From the NCBI GenBank assembly GCA_015068645.1, contig SVKD01000003.1, positions 24,471 through 88,470 on the forward strand: a stretch of 64,000 bases of DNA, read 5' to 3'. Both the position numbers and the translations under genes were made by a program. Below are positions 15,172 through 56,080 of this stretch, piece by piece. How positions within the stretch are numbered: the first letter of the stretch is position 1; each line of letters begins with the position of its first letter. The stretch is from Oscillospiraceae bacterium (lineage in GTDB: Bacteria; Bacillota; Clostridia; UMGS1840). Under the pieces are notes generated by a model. It did not search any database. It was not told the DNA's origin and was given only the letters and a program-made list of their open reading frames with translations.

Positions 15172-17577
15172 TTGGCAAAAGCAAAAACAAACAAGAAGGC
15201 CAAAAAGAAAAAAGGCTTTTGGAGAACCTTCTGGAAAATCATCTGGAGTACCATTCTGATTACGGTTCCTCTGGTAATACTGCTTGTTCTCGGTATCCTG
15301 TGGTATATCTTTGCCACCACCGAGCCGATTGACGTGGAAAACCTGCGAATCGATTTGAACAGCTCCATCTACTATCTGGATGAAGATGGCGACAAACATC
15401 TGTTCGAAGAAATTGATGCAACCCAGAACCGTGATTGGGTGGATTACACCGAAGTCCCTCAGTATATGAAGGATGCTTTTGTTTCCATCGAAGATGAACG
15501 TTTCTTCTCCCACACCGGGTTTGACTTGAAGCGTACCACCAAAGCGATCATCGATTATGCAAGAAAAGGTTCCGGAGCTCAGGGTGGTAGTACCATTACT
15601 CAGCAGCTCGTCAAAAACGTCACCAATAATAAAGACCTTACCCCCCGCAGAAAAATTGAAGAAATCTGGTTGGCGTATCAGCTGGAGCAGGACTTGAGCA
15701 AAGAACAAATCCTGGAGCTTTATATGAACACCATCTATCTGGCACAGGGTGTAAACGGTGTGCAAACCGCTGCCGAGTTGTATTTTGATAAAGACGTGTC
15801 AGACCTTTCTTTGGCAGAATGTGCTTCCATTGCAGGGATTACTCAGTTCCCCTCCAGATATGACCCCTTTGTAAATCCTGATAAAAATAAAGAAAAACAG
15901 GAACTCGTGTTAAAGAAAATGCTGGAAACCGGCAAAATCACCCAGGCAGAATATGATGAAGCCGAAGCAGAAGAACTGGTATTTGCAGATCCCGAAGAAC
16001 AACATGAGAAAAACAATATTAAACAGACCTATATGGGTGAAGTAGTTATCAAAGATGCTATCCGCCTCTTAATGGAAGAACAAGGCATCACCGAAGCAGT
16101 CGCTAAAAAACGTGTATACTCCGGCGGTTATCAGATTATCTCCACCGTAGATCCCAACGTGCAGGATGCCATTGACGATACCTACAGCTCCTATAAGGCA
16201 TTCGGAGAATCTCAGAAAGAAGTAATGCCGCAAAGCGCCATCGTTGTAATGGATCCGCAGACCGGTTATGTAAAAGGTCTCACCGGCGGTATCGGCGAAC
16301 GCGAAGGCTCTTACACCCTAAACCGTGCCGTGGATACTTATCGTCAGCCCGGTTCTTGTATGAAACCTCTTGCCGTGTATGCACCGGCACTGGAAGCAGG
16401 ATTAATTACTCCCAACACCCAAATGGTGGATAAAAAATTATCCGGATATTCTCCGAAAAACTATTACAGCGGTTATTACGGCACTATGTCCGTGCAAAGA
16501 GCGGTGGAATTATCCGTTAACACCATTCCCGTGCAGATTATTGAAGACTTAGGTTACGAAGAATCCTACAATTTCCTACGTAACAAATTCCATATCGACA
16601 GTATTGTGGAAGCAGACAAAAACCCGGCTCTGGCGCTTGGTGGTATCACCGACGGTGTCAACGTTATGGATATGACCGCAGCCTATGCAGCATTTGCTAA
16701 TAACGGTATTTACACCGAGCCTACCACTGTTTTGGAAATTTTAGACCATCACGGCAGAACTGTGGTAAAAGCAAATCCCGAATCTACCGCCATTATGAAA
16801 GAAACCACTGCCCAATATATGCATCAGATGCTGATTTCCGTTGTGAACAATGGTACCGGTACTGCAGCGCGTATTTCCGGCGTAAAAGTAGGCGGTAAAA
16901 CCGGTTCTACCGACGGCGATAAAGACAGATGGTTTGTTGGCTACACTCCCAACTATGTGGCGGCAGTATGGTACGGTTATGATACACCTAAACCCACTTC
17001 CTACTCCTACAACCCCGCATTAAAAGGCTGGAAAGCGGTTATGGACGAAATTATGGAAGACGCTCCCAAGCGTGACTATGCAACCAAAACACCCACTTAT
17101 ATTCCCCCGTCCACTTCCTCTATTCGGGTATGTTCCGTTTCGAATAAATTACCCTGTCAGTACTGTATTGACCAAGGCACCACGGTAACCAGAAGCTTCC
17201 GTGACGGAGCAGCACCTACTACCACCTGTTCCAAAGCATTGCACGAAAAATTCAAAGAGGTGGAACCGAAGAACACTCCGAAACCCACCGAAGAAGATTT
17301 ACCGGAAACTACAGCAACACCCGCACCCTCCGTGGAATATGTTCCCGAACCTACAAAGTTGCCTTCTTTGGATAATAGCCATGACAATGACAACAGCGGT
17401 TTGAACTCTGGTTCAGTTTCTAATGAACCTCCCTCGATCCCCACTGTCACCAGCGAACCTGTAGTAACGCAGGCTCCTGCACCCAGTACTTCTTCTCCTG
17501 GTGCTTCTTCTCCCAGCACGTCCACTCCCAGCGCCCCTGCTCCGGAGGTGGGTGCCGAGGTAGCTCCCGCAGCATAA
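15172..17577 (+). CDS. Class A penicillin-binding protein (GT51 glycosyltransferase + transpeptidase) with Pro/Ser/Thr-rich C-terminal tail
   Basis: TTG start after GAGGTG. GT51 motifs are EDERFFSHTGFD, GGSTITQQL and RKIEE. Transpeptidase motifs are SCMK (SxxK), SVN (SxN) and KTGST (KTG). Confidence 0.9.
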   Translation: MAKAKTNKKAKKKKGFWRTFWKIIWSTILITVPLVILLVLGILWYIFATTEPIDVENLRIDLNSSIYYLDEDGDKHLFEEIDATQNRDWVDYTEVPQYMKDAFVSIEDERFFSHTGFDLKRTTKAIIDYARKGSGAQGGSTITQQLVKNVTNNKDLTPRRKIEEIWLAYQLEQDLSKEQILELYMNTIYLAQGVNGVQTAAELYFDKDVSDLSLAECASIAGITQFPSRYDPFVNPDKNKEKQELVLKKMLETGKITQAEYDEAEAEELVFADPEEQHEKNNIKQTYMGEVVIKDAIRLLMEEQGITEAVAKKRVYSGGYQIISTVDPNVQDAIDDTYSSYKAFGESQKEVMPQSAIVVMDPQTGYVKGLTGGIGEREGSYTLNRAVDTYRQPGSCMKPLAVYAPALEAGLITPNTQMVDKKLSGYSPKNYYSGYYGTMSVQRAVELSVNTIPVQIIEDLGYEESYNFLRNKFHIDSIVEADKNPALALGGITDGVNVMDMTAAYAAFANNGIYTEPTTVLEILDHHGRTVVKANPESTAIMKETTAQYMHQMLISVVNNGTGTAARISGVKVGGKTGSTDGDKDRWFVGYTPNYVAAVWYGYDTPKPTSYSYNPALKGWKAVMDEIMEDAPKRDYATKTPTYIPPSTSSIRVCSVSNKLPCQYCIDQGTTVTRSFRDGAAPTTTCSKALHEKFKEVEPKNTPKPTEEDLPETTATPAPSVEYVPEPTKLPSLDNSHDNDNSGLNSGSVSNEPPSIPTVTSEPVVTQAPAPSTSSPGASSPSTSTPSAPAPEVGAEVAPAA

Positions 17578-17588
17578 GAATCAACATC

Positions 17589-17628
17589 AAAAAAGAGCAA
17601 GTACCATCACGATACTTGCTCTTTTTTA
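17589..17628 (+). terminator. Rho-independent terminator after the class A PBP gene
   Basis: aaaaaagagcaagta / tacttgctctttttt. Confidence 0.8.
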
Positions 17629-17683
17629 ATACAAAACGATTGCCCACTATGGCAATTGATTTTCAGATACTTGATACGATAAC

Positions 17684-17756: not shown

Positions 17757-17843
17757 TAAGAACCGATAAACAAAAATTTTCCAAATAAGATGCCACTAAC
17801 TTTTCAAATCATTTTTCGGCATCAACAATCTTTGTGAGGTAGC

Positions 17844-19127
17844 ATGATGAATAACAAACCAAGAACAAACAAACTGAAAAAAATTCTGATAGTCCTGCTA
17901 TGTATTTTAGGAGCACTGCTTGCTGTGTTTCTCGGAATTGTAATAGGCACAAGCCGTCAGAAAACAGAAACCGCAACCTCTAAAACCAATACACCAAGCA
18001 GTCCTCAGACAAAGATAGCTTCTTCCATTTACTATCTGAACGAAAATGAAGAACCCATCCTGTTTAACGACATCAACGATATTTCCTACATCACCGAAAT
18101 CATTGAAAAAGATGCCGCTGCCCTTTTGGCAGAACAAGAAGGACTAAGCGTAAAAGATGCCAAGGAAAAACTCTTCACCGAAGGATACCGAATTATCTCC
18201 ACCGTGGATCCCGAAGTACAAAATGCAATTGACACCGTATATTCCGATCCTAAAAACTTTGTCTCCGACCTGCCGGAGGATAAAGAACATCCTCAAAGCG
18301 CTATTGTGATAATGGATCCCGAGACCGGTTATGTGAAAGGTATTAGCGGCGGTATTGGAAAACGCGCAGGGAAGTACACCTTAAACCGTGCCGTGGAGAC
18401 CTCCCGTCAACCCGGTTCCTGTATATCCCCTCTTGCCGTGTATGCACCGGCAATCGAAGCAGGTTTAATCACTCCGAGTACTGTTGTGGAAGATAAACAA
18501 TTATCCGGATATTCCCCTAGAAACTCTTACAGCGGTTATTACGGCAAAATGTCCGTGCAAAGAGCGGTGGAATTATCCGTTAACACCATTCCCGTGCAGA
18601 TTATTGAAGACTTAGGTTACGAAGAATCCTACAATTTCCTGCGCAACAAATTCCATATCGACAGTATTGTGGAAGATGATAAAAACCCGGCTCTGGCACT
18701 TGGCGGCATCATCGAAGGTATCAACGTTATGGATATGACCGCAGCCTATGCCACCTTTGCTAATGAAGGTATTTATACCAAACCTACCGCTGTACTGGAA
18801 ATTCAGGATCAAGACGGTAACACCATCGTAAAAGCAGAACCTGAAACAACAGTTGCCATGAGTCCGGAAACTGCACAAGCAATGCATCAAATGTTAGTTT
18901 CAGTGGTTGAAAACGGTACCGGTACTGCAGCGCGTATTTCCGGCGTAACAGTAGGCGGTAAAACCGGTTCTACCGACGGTGATAAAGACAGATGGTTTGT
19001 TGGCTACACTCCCAACTATGTGGCGGCAGTATGGTCCGGTTATGATACACCTAAACCCACTTCCTACCCCTACAACCCCGCATTAAAAGGCTGGAAAGCA
19101 GTTATGGATGTGCTTGAACACGAATAG
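17844..19127 (+). CDS. Transpeptidase-only paralog of the upstream class A PBP (GT51 domain deleted; SxxK changed to SCIS)
   Basis: 427 aa with an N-terminal TM segment. It aligns to residues ~60-95 and ~290-640 of the upstream PBP, with long identical stretches. SVN and KTGST are retained, but the SxxK lysine is Ser. Confidence 0.8.
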   Translation: MMNNKPRTNKLKKILIVLLCILGALLAVFLGIVIGTSRQKTETATSKTNTPSSPQTKIASSIYYLNENEEPILFNDINDISYITEIIEKDAAALLAEQEGLSVKDAKEKLFTEGYRIISTVDPEVQNAIDTVYSDPKNFVSDLPEDKEHPQSAIVIMDPETGYVKGISGGIGKRAGKYTLNRAVETSRQPGSCISPLAVYAPAIEAGLITPSTVVEDKQLSGYSPRNSYSGYYGKMSVQRAVELSVNTIPVQIIEDLGYEESYNFLRNKFHIDSIVEDDKNPALALGGIIEGINVMDMTAAYATFANEGIYTKPTAVLEIQDQDGNTIVKAEPETTVAMSPETAQAMHQMLVSVVENGTGTAARISGVTVGGKTGSTDGDKDRWFVGYTPNYVAAVWSGYDTPKPTSYPYNPALKGWKAVMDVLEHE

Positions 19128-19155
19128 CAAATTTTTTCAATAAAATATTACACAA

Positions 19156-19190
19156 CAAAAAACAGTATGCATTTTGCATACTGTTTTTTT
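19156..19190. terminator. Bidirectional rho-independent terminator (PBP paralog / hisD)
   Basis: aaaaaacagtatgca / tgcatactgttttttt. Confidence 0.8.
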
Positions 19191-23583: not shown

Positions 23584-23656
23584 AAAATAAGAACCCGACC
23601 CGATGACGCAATCAAAGATTGCGGTCGGGTGCCCCGGAACCTTGTTGTATTCACAA
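23584..23656 (+). repeat. Family A repeat, copy 2
   Basis: Identical to copy 1. Confidence 0.9.
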
Positions 23657-23660
23657 TAAA

Positions 23661-23848
23661 AATCCTGCCGTTCGCGTCAGCCGGGTATTTATTAGAACCA
23701 ACACATTTTATAAGGGAGCCCATCTCCTCTCGTCAATTGTAGGCCCACCGCCGTTTTCGGCCGTATGGGGAACGTGCGACTGAGGGTAAGCACCCACCTG
23801 CACATGCAGGTTTCTAATATTATCTTCGGGCAACGGCTCGGCGGGATT
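23661..23848 (+). ncRNA. Candidate structured ncRNA, 6S-like architecture (unverified)
   Basis: 10-bp closing helix aatcctgccg (23661-70) / cggcgggatt (23839-48). Further helices agccg/cggct and attagaacc/ggtttctaat. Apical hairpin gccg-tttt-cggc, and a small hairpin acctgcacatgcaggt on the 3' side of a central loop. Followed by its own terminator and then a separate glyA promoter. Confidence 0.35.
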
Positions 23849-23858
23849 CCAATAGTTT

Positions 23859-25245: not shown

Positions 25246-26533
25246 GCCGTTAGCAGACAGATTACGACCCCAAACACTCACCGACGTTGTCGGACAAAGG
25301 CATCTCCTCTCCGAGGGGATGCCTGTTTTTGCTGTGTTGGAACGCTCCAAGCAAGCGGGAATGAGCCTGCCCAATATGATTTTTTACGGACCTTCCGGCA
25401 CAGGAAAAACCACGGTTGCCAATCTGATTGCAAAAAACATCAATAAAAAACTGTATAAATTAAACGCCACCAACGCCTCAGTTGCCGATATTAAATCCAT
25501 TATTGCAGATTTAGACGGTTTTGAAGCCCAAAACGGCGTGGTCTTATACTTAGACGAAATTCAGAATTTCAATAAGAAGCAACAGCAATCCTTATTGGAA
25601 TATGTGGAAAAAGGAGACATCACCTTAATCGCCTCCACCACCGAGAATCCCTATTTTTATATTTATAATGCCCTCTTATCCCGATGCACCGTGTTCGAAT
25701 TTAAAGAGCTGTCTGATGAGGATATCAAAGGAGCAGTAATTCGTGCAGTTTCCATTCTGCAGGAAGATATGGCAATCACTTTTTCAGAGGATGCCATCTC
25801 TCATATTGCCACCACTTCGGGCGGTGATTGCAGAAAAGCTTTAAACACCGTGGAAATGTGTTCCATGATTGCAAAAATGGACAAAGACGGTACCATAGCG
25901 GTTACCTTAGAAGATGTGGAACGTACCACCTCCAAAAAAGCATTTCGTTACGATAAAGATGGCGACAGTCACTACGATGTGCTCTCTGCCTTGCAGAAAT
26001 CCATCCGTGGAAGCGATCCTGATGCAGCTCTTCACTACTTGGCAAGACTCATCGCAGGCGGTGACCTGATTTCCATTTGCAGAAGAATTCAGGTAATGGC
26101 GTCCGAAGACATCGGTCTTGCCTATCCTCAGGCGGTTTCCATTGTGAAATCCTGCGTGGATGCGGCATTCCAGTTAGGATTCCCGGAAGCACGTCTTCCT
26201 TTGGCACAAGCGGTTATTTTACTGGCAACGGCTCCCAAATCCAACTCCGTAATTATGAGTATTGATGCGGCATTATCCGATGTGGAACATTCCCACACGG
26301 GGGACATTCCCGCCCATTTAAAAGACGGTCATTATGCCGGTGCGAAAAAGCTGGGACACGCCCAGGGGTATCAATATCCCCATAATTACCCCAATCACTA
26401 TGTAGCCCAACAGTATTTGCCCGATGAAATTATGGACAAAAGCTACTATTTCCCTTGCGATAATAAATTTGAAAACGAAATCCAAAATTACGCAAAAAAA
26501 ATAGATGCTCTCTGGTCCAAAAAGAAAAGATAG
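25238..26533 (+). CDS. rarA: Replication-associated recombination protein A (AAA+ ATPase)
   Basis: [16 protein letters not shown], Walker [10 protein letters not shown] and a MgsA C-terminal domain. The ATG overlaps the glyA stop (atgaataa). Confidence 0.9.
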
Positions 26534-26606
26534 AAAATAAGAACCCGACCCGATGACGCAATCAAAGATTGCGGTCGGGTGCCCCGGAACCTTGTTGTAT
26601 TCACAA
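26534..26606 (+). repeat. Family A repeat, copy 3 (starts 1 nt after the rarA stop codon)
   Basis: Identical to copies 1 and 2. Confidence 0.9.
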
Positions 26607-26640
26607 AAAAAACGGTATCAAAAGATACCGTTTTTTTTAT
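26605..26640. terminator. Bidirectional terminator between rarA and polA
   Basis: aaaaaaaacggtatc / gataccgtttttttt. Confidence 0.8.
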
Positions 26641-42920: not shown

Positions 42921-42990
42921 TGAATACAACAAGGTTCCGAGGTACCCGACCGCAATCTTTGATTGCGTTATCGGGTCGGGTTCTTATTTT
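42921..42990 (-). repeat. Family A repeat, copy 4 (inverted, a few substitutions)
   Basis: The reverse complement matches copies 1-3 except gatgacg>gataacg, tgccccgg>tacctcgg and the 3' end. Confidence 0.85.
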
Positions 42991-43213: not shown

Positions 43214-43290
43214 GGCCTGGTAGTTCAGCTGGTTAGAACGCTAGCCTGTCACGCTAGAGGTCGAGGGTTCGATCCCCTTCCAGGTCGCCA
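43214..43290 (+). tRNA. tRNA-Asp (GTC)
   Basis: Cloverleaf read by hand. Anticodon loop cuGUCac, T-loop ttcgatc, encoded CCA. Confidence 0.9.
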
Positions 43291-43333
43291 CTTTTCTTTA
43301 AATCCCTTGGAGATTGAGCCGTGACTAACATTT

Positions 43334-43409
43334 GCCTCTGTAGCTCAGTCGGTAGAGCAAGGGACTGAAAATCCCTGTGTCGGCGGTTCGATTCCACCCG
43401 GAGGCACCA
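43334..43409 (+). tRNA. tRNA-Phe (GAA)
   Basis: Anticodon loop cuGAAaa and encoded CCA. One C-A mismatch in the T stem. Confidence 0.85.
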
Positions 43410-43434
43410 ACAGCTTTTTAAGAAAATATAATAT

Positions 43435-43509
43435 GCGGGAGTGGCTCAGTGGTAGAGCGTCACCTTGCCAAGGTGAACGTCGCGAGTTCGAATCTCGTCT
43501 TCCGCTCCA
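43435..43509 (+). tRNA. tRNA-Gly (GCC)
   Basis: Anticodon loop uuGCCaa, encoded CCA. Confidence 0.9.
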
Positions 43510-43567
43510 TTTGATAAAAGGCACAATGCATATTGTGCCTTTTATCAACTAAAAAACAATTTCATAT

Positions 43568-43641
43568 GGCGCCATAGCCAAGTGGTAAGGCATCGGTCTG
43601 CAACACCTTGATCCCCAGTTCGAATCTGGGTGGCGCCTCCA
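43568..43641 (+). tRNA. tRNA-Cys (GCA)
   Basis: Anticodon loop cuGCAac, with acceptor and T arms similar to Bacillus tRNA-Cys. The base of the anticodon stem has two mismatches. Confidence 0.75.
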
Positions 43642-55652: not shown

Positions 55653-55728
55653 TGGTGAGCCATCGGCGATTCGAACGCCGGACAACTTGATTAAAAGTCA
55701 AGTGCTCTACCGACTGAGCTAATGGCCC
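55653..55728 (-). tRNA. tRNA-Lys (TTT)
   Basis: Reverse complement folds as a cloverleaf. Anticodon loop cuUUUaa, encoded CCA. Confidence 0.9.
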
Positions 55729-55734
55729 ATATAT

Positions 55735-55810
55735 TGGCTGGGATAGCTGGACTCGAACCAGCGAATGCAGGAGTCAAAGTCCTGTGCCTTACCGACTTGG
55801 CGATATCCCA
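55735..55810 (-). tRNA. tRNA-Gln (TTG)
   Basis: Anticodon stem cagga/tcctg, loop cuUUGac, encoded CCA. Confidence 0.9.
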
Positions 55811-55829
55811 TCATATCAAAGTAATATAA

Positions 55830-55907
55830 TGGGGTGGATAATCGGATTCGAACCGATGACCCCCAGAGCCACAATCTGGTGCTCTAACCAACTGAGCTAT
55901 ACCCACC
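55830..55907 (-). tRNA. tRNA-His (GTG)
   Basis: Anticodon loop uuGUGgc, an extra 5' G, encoded CCA. Confidence 0.85.
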
Positions 55908-55920
55908 ATAAAAGACAAAG

Positions 55921-55997
55921 TGGCGCGCCTGAAGAGATTCGAACTCCTGGCCTACTGCTTAGAAGGCAGTTGCTCTATCCGGCTGAGCTACAGGCGC
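55921..55997 (-). tRNA. tRNA-Arg (TCT)
   Basis: Anticodon stem actgc/gcagt, loop cuUCUaa, encoded CCA. Confidence 0.9.
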
Positions 55998-56006
55998 ATA
56001 AAATAA

Positions 56007-56080
56007 TGGAGCGGGTGATGGGAATCGAACCCACACAATCAGCTTGGAAGGCTGAGATTCTACCATTGAACTACACCCGC
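56007..56080 (-). tRNA. tRNA-Gly (TCC)
   Basis: Anticodon loop cuUCCaa, encoded CCA. Confidence 0.9.

Follow-up and report, generated by a model that had tools for sequence, protein, structure and literature searches.

A tandem duplicate of a gene for a penicillin-binding protein of class A, without the glycosyltransferase module and the SxxK lysine in uncultured Clostridia

We analysed a stretch of 64,000 nucleotides from an Oscillospiraceae bacterium (GenBank assembly GCA_015068645.1, contig SVKD01000003.1, positions 24,471 to 88,470 of the forward strand), called the window below. A gene at 17844-19127, here called the paralog, is a tandem duplicate of the neighbouring gene for a bifunctional class A penicillin-binding protein (PBP), the parent, with the glycosyltransferase module (GT51) cut out in frame. 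In its transpeptidase (TP) domain the lysine of the catalytic SxxK motif has been replaced by serine, and in the ortholog that we found in a second species by threonine. We lean towards the reading that the product is a young, membrane-anchored pseudo-transpeptidase that acts non-catalytically. The evidence comes from the derivation and architecture of the gene, from the state of its active site, and from the pattern of selection and gene conversion between the two species.

Origin, architecture and active site

The features needed for the argument are given below, with residues of the paralog numbered from the ATG at 17847.

15172-17577, plus strand: parent gene, bifunctional class A PBP of the PBP1A family, 801 aa (Pfam and NCBIfam matches)
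17836-17839, plus strand: Shine-Dalgarno sequence GAGG, 7 nt ahead of ATG 17847, read directly from the sequence
17844-19127, plus strand: paralog open reading frame (ORF), 427 aa if read from ATG 17844, 426 aa if read from ATG 17847
17871-17942, plus strand: N-terminal transmembrane (TM) helix, aa 9-32, from the secondary structure of the AlphaFold2 (AF2) model
18021-18065, plus strand: retained pre-GT51 segment SSIYYLNENEEPILF, aa 59-73, by homology to parent aa 64-78
18078-18089, plus strand: in-frame deletion junction …LFNDINDI/SYITEIIEKDA…, from a four-way protein alignment
18417-18428, plus strand: degenerate tetrad S191-C-I-S194 (TCC TGT ATA TCC), from codon comparison with the parent
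18576-18584, plus strand: intact SxN motif S244-V-N246
18960-18968, plus strand: intact KTG(S) motif K372-T-G374

The parent consists, in this order, of a TM anchor, GT51, a linker, a TP domain with the tetrad S-C-M-K, a C-terminal module that contains Cys, and a tail rich in Pro, Ser and Thr. It matched PF00912 (GT51) with 213.9 bits, PF00905 with 114.9 bits and the TIGR02074 PBP1A model with 543 bits, above the cut-off of 508.75. The paralog lies downstream, after a gap of 266 nt. In the Pfam scan it matched PF00905 alone (105.1 bits against a gathering score of 22.1, aa 153-401), with no match to PF00912 at E <= 0.01 and none to PF03717, the dimer or pedestal domain of class B PBPs. BLASTP aligned paralog aa 81-422 with parent aa 286-625 at 75% identity (529 bits). 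A separate short match paired the paralog segment SSIYYLNENEEPILF with SSIYYLDEDGDKHLF of the parent (10 of 21 residues identical, E = 0.011 in a single comparison).

The same arrangement was found in independent assemblies. A JGI contig (L002) matches 8.4 kb of the window at 99.99% identity, a stretch that takes in the parent's 3' part and the paralog in full, and the identical paralog protein is present on four further contigs. The NCBI record MBE7018609.1, from a Ruminococcaceae/Oscillospiraceae metagenome-assembled genome (MAG), is the paralog under the name 'hypothetical protein'. An assembly artefact or a chance similarity is ruled out by this recurrence together with the 529-bit score. 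The gene callers of JGI and ENA place the start at ATG 17847 (P0001, 426 aa), that of NCBI at 17844; the former is the more likely start because GAGG sits 7 nt upstream of it.

The closest NCBIfam, PDB and Foldseek matches of the paralog were all class A PBPs. Its score against TIGR02074 was 277.9 bits, below the 508.75 cut-off, and covered profile positions 214-531 only (the C-terminal 60%). Since GT51 is absent and this score is under the cut-off, the paralog stands outside the class A PBPs if that family is defined by bifunctionality. Nor does it belong to the class B PBPs, because the pedestal domain is absent and the N-terminal part is a class A PBP (aPBP) hairpin and linker. It belongs to the PF00905 domain family, in which it fails one of the three catalytic motifs.

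The four-way alignment contains one deletion of about 200 codons, which removed parent residues ~84-284, the GT51 module. In an alignment of 49 sequences the conserved GT51 columns were all gaps in both paralog orthologs. The AF2 model made with the latter alignment had a mean predicted local distance difference test score (pLDDT) of 88.5 and a predicted TM-score (pTM) of 0.84, with the linker and the TP domain mostly above 90. A Lys/Arg-rich cytoplasmic stub precedes the TM helix, which is followed by a disordered spacer of ~25 aa rich in Ser, Thr, Pro and Lys (aa 33-57; pLDDT below 50 at aa 28-57). The pre-GT51 segment is a predicted beta-hairpin with strands at 60-64 and 70-72; aa 61-70 had a block-mean pLDDT of ~83 and aa 71-80 one of ~70. 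The top Foldseek match was Listeria PBP4 (3zg7; TM-score 0.75, E = 5e-34), and the others included Chlamydia PBP1a and many TP-domain entries of S. pneumoniae PBP1b. The paralog is thus predicted to be a type II membrane protein with a TP domain of the class A type outside the membrane.

We take the pre-GT51 segment to be part of the linker sheet in solved aPBP structures. Stable TP fragments of pneumococcal PBP1a and PBP1b keep a short N-terminal peptide within the inter-domain linker sheet. The excision of GT51 would in that case follow a boundary between structural domains and, if the hairpin packs in this way, its retention would be explained.

A homologue encoded outside the window has a comparable layout. 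It is P0054, an unrelated protein from Clostridia (444 aa, with 8 member sequences), which has an N-terminal signal or anchor segment, a linker and a class A-type TP domain, without GT51 and with an intact SAIK motif. Apparently, GT51 was lost independently elsewhere from an aPBP-type protein, there with the lysine kept.

The active site of the paralog was placed by a HMMER alignment with the solved Listeria PBP4 (3zg7), in which QPGSTMKPLAVY stood opposite QPGSCISPLAVY and STMK opposite SCIS. The SIN and GKTGST of 3zg7 fell opposite SVN and GKTGST of the paralog. Because this alignment fixes the positions of the motifs, no alternative SxxK can take the place of the active site. The parental tetrad is TCT TGT ATG AAA (S-C-M-K); in the paralog, AAA has given way to TCC. 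S191, aligned to the serine of STMK, is an invariant column, as are S244 and N246 of the SxN motif and K372, T373 and G374 of the KTG motif. The lysine was kept in all 116 other homologues with a readable motif (118 scanned) and in 47 of 47 aligned full-length homologues.

We also checked the ~65 linker and TP columns of the 49-sequence alignment with a conservation of 90% or more in full-length homologues. Departures specific to the paralogs were limited to G112E and K194S/T (both species), R187H (second species) and T289I (window). By this measure the preservation of the TP domain is very good, the exceptions being the catalytic base and a few near-invariant residues lost in single lineages.

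The initial annotation of the window, made from the letters alone, had anticipated much of this. It derived the paralog from the upstream bifunctional class A PBP, saw the TM anchor and the pre-GT51 segment retained and the whole GT51 module missing in frame, read SxxK as having lost its lysine to serine with SVN and KTGST intact, and noted the missing Pro/Ser/Thr-rich tail, which the window paralog lacks in the four-way alignment as well. All of these observations were upheld by the profile, alignment and model evidence above, and the possibility it had raised of a different Ser-x-x-Lys at the active site was removed by the alignment with 3zg7.

Second species, selection and gene conversion

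An ortholog of the paralog (P0002, 489 aa, 85% identical) was found on a metagenome contig of a second species (L001), in flanking DNA ~90% identical to that of the window. The gene order is the same: sigA-dnaG, then the aPBP gene (796 aa) and the paralog, then hisD-pyrE-like genes and nrdR-mnmA. The TM segment, the hairpin and the deletion junction are common to both orthologs; because they share this junction, GT51 was excised once, before the species split. The tetrad of the ortholog is S-C-M-T (…ATG ACT). The non-lysine state is therefore found in both species, with a small hydroxyl residue as the replacement in each. On the cheapest path (4 steps against 5), AAA would have changed to ACN (Thr) in the common ancestor and Thr to Ser later in the lineage of the window. 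In terms of the initial annotation, which had looked to orthologs for conservation of the K-to-S change, the absence of lysine is conserved and the replacing residue is not.

Scans of genome and metagenome contigs with a paralog-specific N-terminal alignment (A3) gave no further orthologs. A paralog-specific DNA pattern around the active site had no match in metagenome contigs, and a search of 5.8 billion proteins returned only P0001 (with P0121) and P0002. A second genomic context of the paralog, with an ABC transporter or a minus-strand gene upstream (contigs L003-L005), was rejected: the window is colinear with L004 and L005, whose supposed upstream gene is a spurious antisense ORF in the tail of the parent, while in L003 the switch of context falls exactly at a 76-nt repeat (described below), a chimeric join.

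The duplication is young and lineage-restricted, since both the sister genomes and the listed GTDB loci are without the paralog. In the nearest sister genomes (L008 and L010) the aPBP orthologs are ~63% identical and have the same synteny, with chorismate synthase where the paralog would be. A GTDB scan with an alignment of the parent (A5) gave, among the matches listed, 80 Clostridia aPBP loci, the best of them 46% identical; the best-scoring of these listed loci came from MAGs of uncultured gut Clostridia and Oscillospiraceae. A second TP-like region within 5 kb was present at none of 83 aPBP loci (the 80 GTDB loci among the matches listed and L008-L010). The synonymous divergence (dS) between paralog and parent, measured in the unconverted segment, is ~1.0, compared to ~0.4 between the two species. 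Because the former exceeds the latter, the duplication predates the species split; its age would be roughly 2.5 times that of the split.

For the part of the gene that lies outside the conversion tracts described below, we estimated omega (dN/dS) by the Nei-Gojobori method between the paralog orthologs of the window and L001, a single pairwise comparison. Contigs L002-L006 had been retrieved by exact protein identity and are a biased sample; their single-nucleotide differences were left out of the selection tests. The estimates were as follows.

aa 1-79 (TM helix, spacer and hairpin; 79 codons): omega 0.30
First 70 linker codons: omega 0.20
aa 1-149 (149 codons): omega 0.25, bootstrap 95% interval 0.15-0.41, binomial test against neutrality p = 4e-6
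aa 1-218 (218 codons): omega 0.27, bootstrap 95% interval 0.17-0.42, p = 4e-8

Over the 654 unconverted nucleotides the orthologs showed 0 indels and 0 stop codons at a dS of ~0.45. The adjacent intergenic spacer had 72% identity over ungapped columns and dozens of gaps in the same two genomes. For the parents, omega over the segment from the linker to the active site was 0.06, and parsimony with outgroups assigned 16 tip amino-acid changes to the paralog and 3 to the parent. These values point to real but relaxed purifying selection on the paralog-specific 5' half. In this comparison of two species none of the marks of a pseudogene (frameshifts, stop codons, neutral evolution) was found. A pseudogene is unlikely because omega values of 0.25-0.27 reject neutrality and the unconverted half is without indels. 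With an essential catalytic residue lost and the gene apparently retained under selection, the paralog would qualify as a pseudoenzyme.

The DNA identity between paralog and parent is a mosaic. From the junction to ~25-30 codons past the tetrad it varies from 33 to 85%, and in this region the orthologs group together. Further 3', two tracts in the window are nearly identical to the parent.

18519-18679, plus strand: conversion tract 1, 95% identity to parent 16456-16616 (DNA comparison), with a 92-nt exact run (18549-18640 = 16486-16577)
18909-19111, plus strand: conversion tract 2, 95% identity to parent 16846-17048, with a 55-nt exact run inside

The tracts are separated by a patch of 58-70% identity and cover about half of the TP domain. 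In L001 the two genes are 100% identical over the rest of the TP domain (~200 codons), a value that assembly could have inflated, L001 being an 11.9x metagenome contig. The L001 parent bears paralog-type sequence across the inter-tract patch. The displaced parent-type sequence apparently survives as a 122-nt relic (L001 11469-11590), 92.6% identical to nt 1509-1630 of the window's parent gene, a parent-type TP patch. The start of the relic coincides exactly with the paralog's stop codon in L001, and homology does not extend into its flanks; it looks to be the scar of an illegitimate recombination or rearrangement at this locus. Outgroup polarisation of a 40-codon patch (codons 230-270 of the TP alignment) was ambiguous by eye, and it is on the relic that we read the direction of conversion in L001 as from paralog to parent. 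Segments of the paralog's TP domain would be tolerated inside a working aPBP, as the L001 parent carries the paralog-type patch.

Taken together, the 3' half of the paralog's TP domain exchanges sequence with the parent by gene conversion, apparently in both directions, and the 5' half, with the degenerate active site in it, diverges separately from the parent. In both genomes the tracts start only 3' of the tetrad, as would be expected if the entry of a tetrad without lysine into the parent is deleterious.

A related case is P0003 (L007 635-2527, on a 3.6-kb metagenome contig), a hybrid aPBP of 630 aa that is 83% identical to the paralog. It was considered as a closer parent and rejected. P0003 joins the 5' part of the parent, with SxxK intact, to the 3' part of the paralog, each side of the join showing 100% identity to the window; the switch lies in the 92-nt identical tract (16486-16577 / 18549-18640), and nothing of the paralog-specific half remains. 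Either the assembly is chimeric here, or unequal crossing-over has produced a real deletion allele.

The two orthologs differ at their 3' ends. The window paralog ends at …VMDVLEHE, without the parent's Pro/Ser/Thr-rich tail and Cys-containing C-terminal module, and relative to L001 it is missing ~520 nt (window 19111-19174 compared to L001 11265-11847). The L001 paralog still encodes the Cys-containing module, to …CSKALHEQ. This module (…VC..S.KLP..YC…TC…) is common to the parent aPBPs and their relatives. In the paralog it would be either dispensable or eroding.

Weighing the explanations

In the course of events that we propose, a class A PBP gene would have been duplicated in tandem in a single lineage. 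One in-frame deletion would have taken GT51 and spared the TM anchor, the beta-hairpin ahead of GT, the linker and the entire TP domain, and the general-base lysine of SxxK would have been replaced by serine in the window and by threonine in the sister species. The product, made from a promoter of its own, would display a class A-type TP fold outside the membrane, where it could bind stem peptides, the parent's partners or both, and so modulate or scaffold cross-linking (where it occurs and how much). The 3' half of its TP domain would continue to exchange with the parent by conversion, and the 5' half would evolve alone.

Some of the biochemical consequences are firmer than others. Because GT51 is absent, the paralog cannot polymerise lipid II or glycan. 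Acylation by D-Ala-D-Ala donor stems or by beta-lactams is very probably severely impaired, as the SxxK mechanism needs the motif lysine as proton abstractor; Goffin and Ghuysen are said to have described this lysine in 2002 as the conserved proton abstractor for the serine throughout the SxxK superfamily. A protein acylated so poorly would be neither a transpeptidase nor a useful beta-lactam sink. We infer a non-catalytic role, by binding of stem peptides or of partners, from the signs of selection and from the analogy with other degenerate paralogs of cell-wall enzymes.

Several observations weigh against the reading of the paralog as a functional pseudo-transpeptidase. Its absence from the nearest sisters and from the 80 listed loci means that its function is not old and entrenched, and only two orthologous lineages were found across all the collections searched. 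The evolutionary rate of the paralog is some 4-5 times that of the parent (omega 0.25 compared to 0.06; 16 changes compared to 3). Conservation of the non-lysine state is a matter of two sequences with different residues (Ser and Thr), as relaxed constraint would also give, and each species has lost one more otherwise near-invariant residue (R187H in L001, T289I in the window). The C-termini differ: the window copy lost ~520 nt and the L001 copy stops at a rearrangement scar. Functional or not, the 3' half is kept open by conversion from the parent. A weak or fading function is thus possible, and the specific role that we assign is conjecture.

The same observations make up the case for a redundant young duplicate in slow decay, in which GT51 and the lysine were lost without selection and conversion keeps the 3' half in repair. 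We consider this a minority possibility, one to be taken seriously. It would accommodate the restriction to one lineage, the faster evolution, the additional losses, the different residues at the former lysine position, the independent 3' truncations and scars, the tracts over about half of the TP domain, and the L007 contig with its fusion of parent and paralog in which the paralog-specific half is gone. What speaks against decay is the unconverted half, where omega was 0.25-0.27 over 149-218 codons with neutrality rejected (p = 4e-6 to 4e-8) and where 654 nt have stayed free of indels and stops at a dS of ~0.45, next to non-coding DNA full of gaps. The TM helix, hairpin, junction, Shine-Dalgarno sequence and start codon are kept in both species, and besides the lysine nearly all conserved TP positions are retained. 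The initial annotation had set aside a decaying pseudogene on the strength of the intact frame of 427 aa. That argument is weak, because conversion alone would keep the 3' half open and its openness is not in itself evidence of function; the conclusion stands better on the shared architecture of the orthologs and on omega, and neither frameshifts nor stop codons appeared in the window or in L001.

Altered chemistry, the other possibility named in the initial annotation, would leave the TP domain catalytic, as a hydrolase or as a transpeptidase with different kinetics or beta-lactam resistance. The KTG lysine or the network around the SxN serine would activate Ser191, with Ser/Thr194 in a proton relay. 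The nucleophilic serine, SxN, KTG and the surrounding pocket residues are indeed kept, and a hydroxyl residue has replaced the lysine in both species. We nevertheless hold this to be improbable: the motif lysine is the conserved proton abstractor and was kept in 116 of 116 other readable homologues, our literature search found no class A or class B PBP in nature that works without it, and the presence of Ser in one species and Thr in the other, taken with R187H and T289I, resembles relaxation of an active site rather than a new catalytic design that has been fixed. Of the initial proposal of a class A PBP-derived pseudoenzyme or altered-chemistry variant, the loss of the lysine and the retention of the gene were confirmed; the choice between the two is one that sequence cannot settle.

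More improbable still is that the paralog serves as a conversion cassette, a silent or semi-silent donor of TP segments to the aPBP gene in the manner of the mosaic pbp genes of streptococci. The two tracts in the window genome would fit, as would the L001 parent with its paralog-type sequence over at least 200 codons and the surviving relic of what was displaced. A second-order benefit of this kind is, however, hard to maintain by selection, the purifying selection in the half that carries the TM segment, hairpin and linker and takes no part in conversion would be left without explanation, and the 100% identity in L001 may in part be an effect of assembly. We also think it doubtful that the most ambitious form of our own reading holds, in which the paralog would be the first natural class A PBP-derived pseudo-transpeptidase, regulating or scaffolding its parent and linked to it by two-way conversion as an enzyme/pseudoenzyme module with a reservoir of TP alleles.

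Spacer, surroundings and known systems

Two elements lie in the spacer between parent and paralog.

17586-17630, strand unassigned: terminator-like hairpin GAGCAAGTA...TACTTGCTC with A-run and T-run flanks, directly 3' of the parent stop codon
17684-17759, plus strand: 76-nt hairpin-containing intergenic repeat, absent from the L001 spacer

The terminator scan flagged 17586-17630 on the minus strand only; reading it on the plus strand as well, as a bidirectional element, comes from inspection of the sequence. The L001 spacer contains a hairpin, CCCCTATGGTAG...CTACCATAGGGG, followed by TTTTTT, and there AGGAG precedes the start codon of the paralog. Sigma-70-like matches were only weak, and an Rfam scan of the spacer gave only sub-threshold noise. 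The paralog is probably transcribed on its own, from its own putative promoter, because a hairpin with a T-run separates the genes and a Shine-Dalgarno sequence is present in both species.

The 76-nt repeat has identical copies at 23584-23659 and 26534-26613 (plus strand) and a diverged copy at 42933-42982 (minus strand). It contains a strong bulged hairpin, ACCCGACC…GGTCGGGT, with a fold z-score of -5.4. Since the L001 spacer is without it, it looks like a mobile element resembling repetitive extragenic palindromes (REP) or miniature inverted-repeat transposable elements (MITE). At L001 19125-19650, syntenic to the repeat site at 26528-26630, there is a 140-aa gene with a weak match to PF01797 (Y1 transposase, IS200/IS605-like or REP-associated tyrosine transposase (RAYT)-like), which hints that the repeat is REP-like and tied to a Y1 transposase. 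The 5' end of a 6S RNA gene (Rfam RF00013, 77.5 bits; 23659-23851, plus strand) abuts one copy of the repeat. The window also holds two clusters of tRNA genes (Rfam RF00005), four at 43214-43638 (plus strand) and five at 55656-56080 (minus strand).

Genes for YunB, YtfJ and an M50 peptidase lie near the locus, and because of them the host can be called a spore former. A putative role of the paralog specific to a stage of sporulation is conceivable.

Compared to class A PBPs such as L. monocytogenes PBP4 (3zg7) and S. pneumoniae PBP1a and PBP1b, the paralog shares the TM anchor, the pre-GT hairpin, the linker and the TP domain and is without GT51 and the SxxK lysine; the window copy is also without the C-terminal Cys module and the low-complexity tail. 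The TP-only crystal fragments of pneumococcal PBP1a and PBP1b (2c5w, 2c6w, 2bg1, 2uwx) were among its sequence and Foldseek matches. We take these entries to contain the linker, the TP domain and a short N-terminal stretch that comes from ahead of the GT region or from inside it, as the paralog does. They are, however, laboratory pieces of active enzymes with SxxK intact, whereas the paralog is natural and has no lysine.

Natural PBP paralogs with a mutated SXXK are already known, and the aPBP-derived form without GT would be a new variation on them. In viridans streptococci, paralogs of the low-molecular-weight (LMW) PBP3-type DD-carboxypeptidase have the serine and/or the lysine of SXXK mutated where a second functional copy exists, and the authors consider them inactive (PMC4863584). 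These are LMW class C proteins, with no domain excision, not in tandem, and with no conversion reported (PMC4863584). Many Streptomyces homologues with a beta-lactamase fold are likewise without catalytic motifs (PMC6273383).

Looser parallels come from two further sources. In some class B PBPs, e.g. the sporulation and division class B PBPs of C. difficile, TP catalysis is dispensable (PMC12713402). These proteins keep their active site intact and carry a pedestal domain, which pairs with a polymerase of the SEDS family (named for shape, elongation, division, sporulation), unlike the paralog, which is without a pedestal; the likeness would be a functional analogy, that of a non-catalytic or redundant role under cover of another PBP. 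Catalytically inactive LytM factors are degenerate paralogs of cell-wall enzymes that act as regulators (PMC8416486). They share with the paralog the concept of a peptidoglycan enzyme that was duplicated, gave up catalytic residues and regulates active enzymes, with an unrelated fold and chemistry, and regulation by the paralog is a suggestion drawn from it only. Our literature search found no aPBP-derived pseudoenzyme or paralog without GT, none without both GT and lysine, and no concerted evolution of such a pair.

The reach of these observations is limited, as the paralog is known from two uncultured species of gut Clostridia only. Even so, annotation or PBP inventories that count PF00905 domains would score it as an additional transpeptidase and beta-lactam target, very probably wrongly. 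The locus offers a small model of how a multidomain enzyme may be trimmed at an exact structural boundary, of how conversion and divergence may partition a duplicated gene, with tracts that start shortly past the active-site motif, and of how a TP domain may behave without its general base. How Gram-positive bacteria, and Clostridia in particular, regulate their class A PBPs is poorly understood. A functional paralog would be a natural case in which a peptidoglycan synthase has yielded its own non-catalytic partner through duplication, excision of a domain and loss of the active-site lysine.

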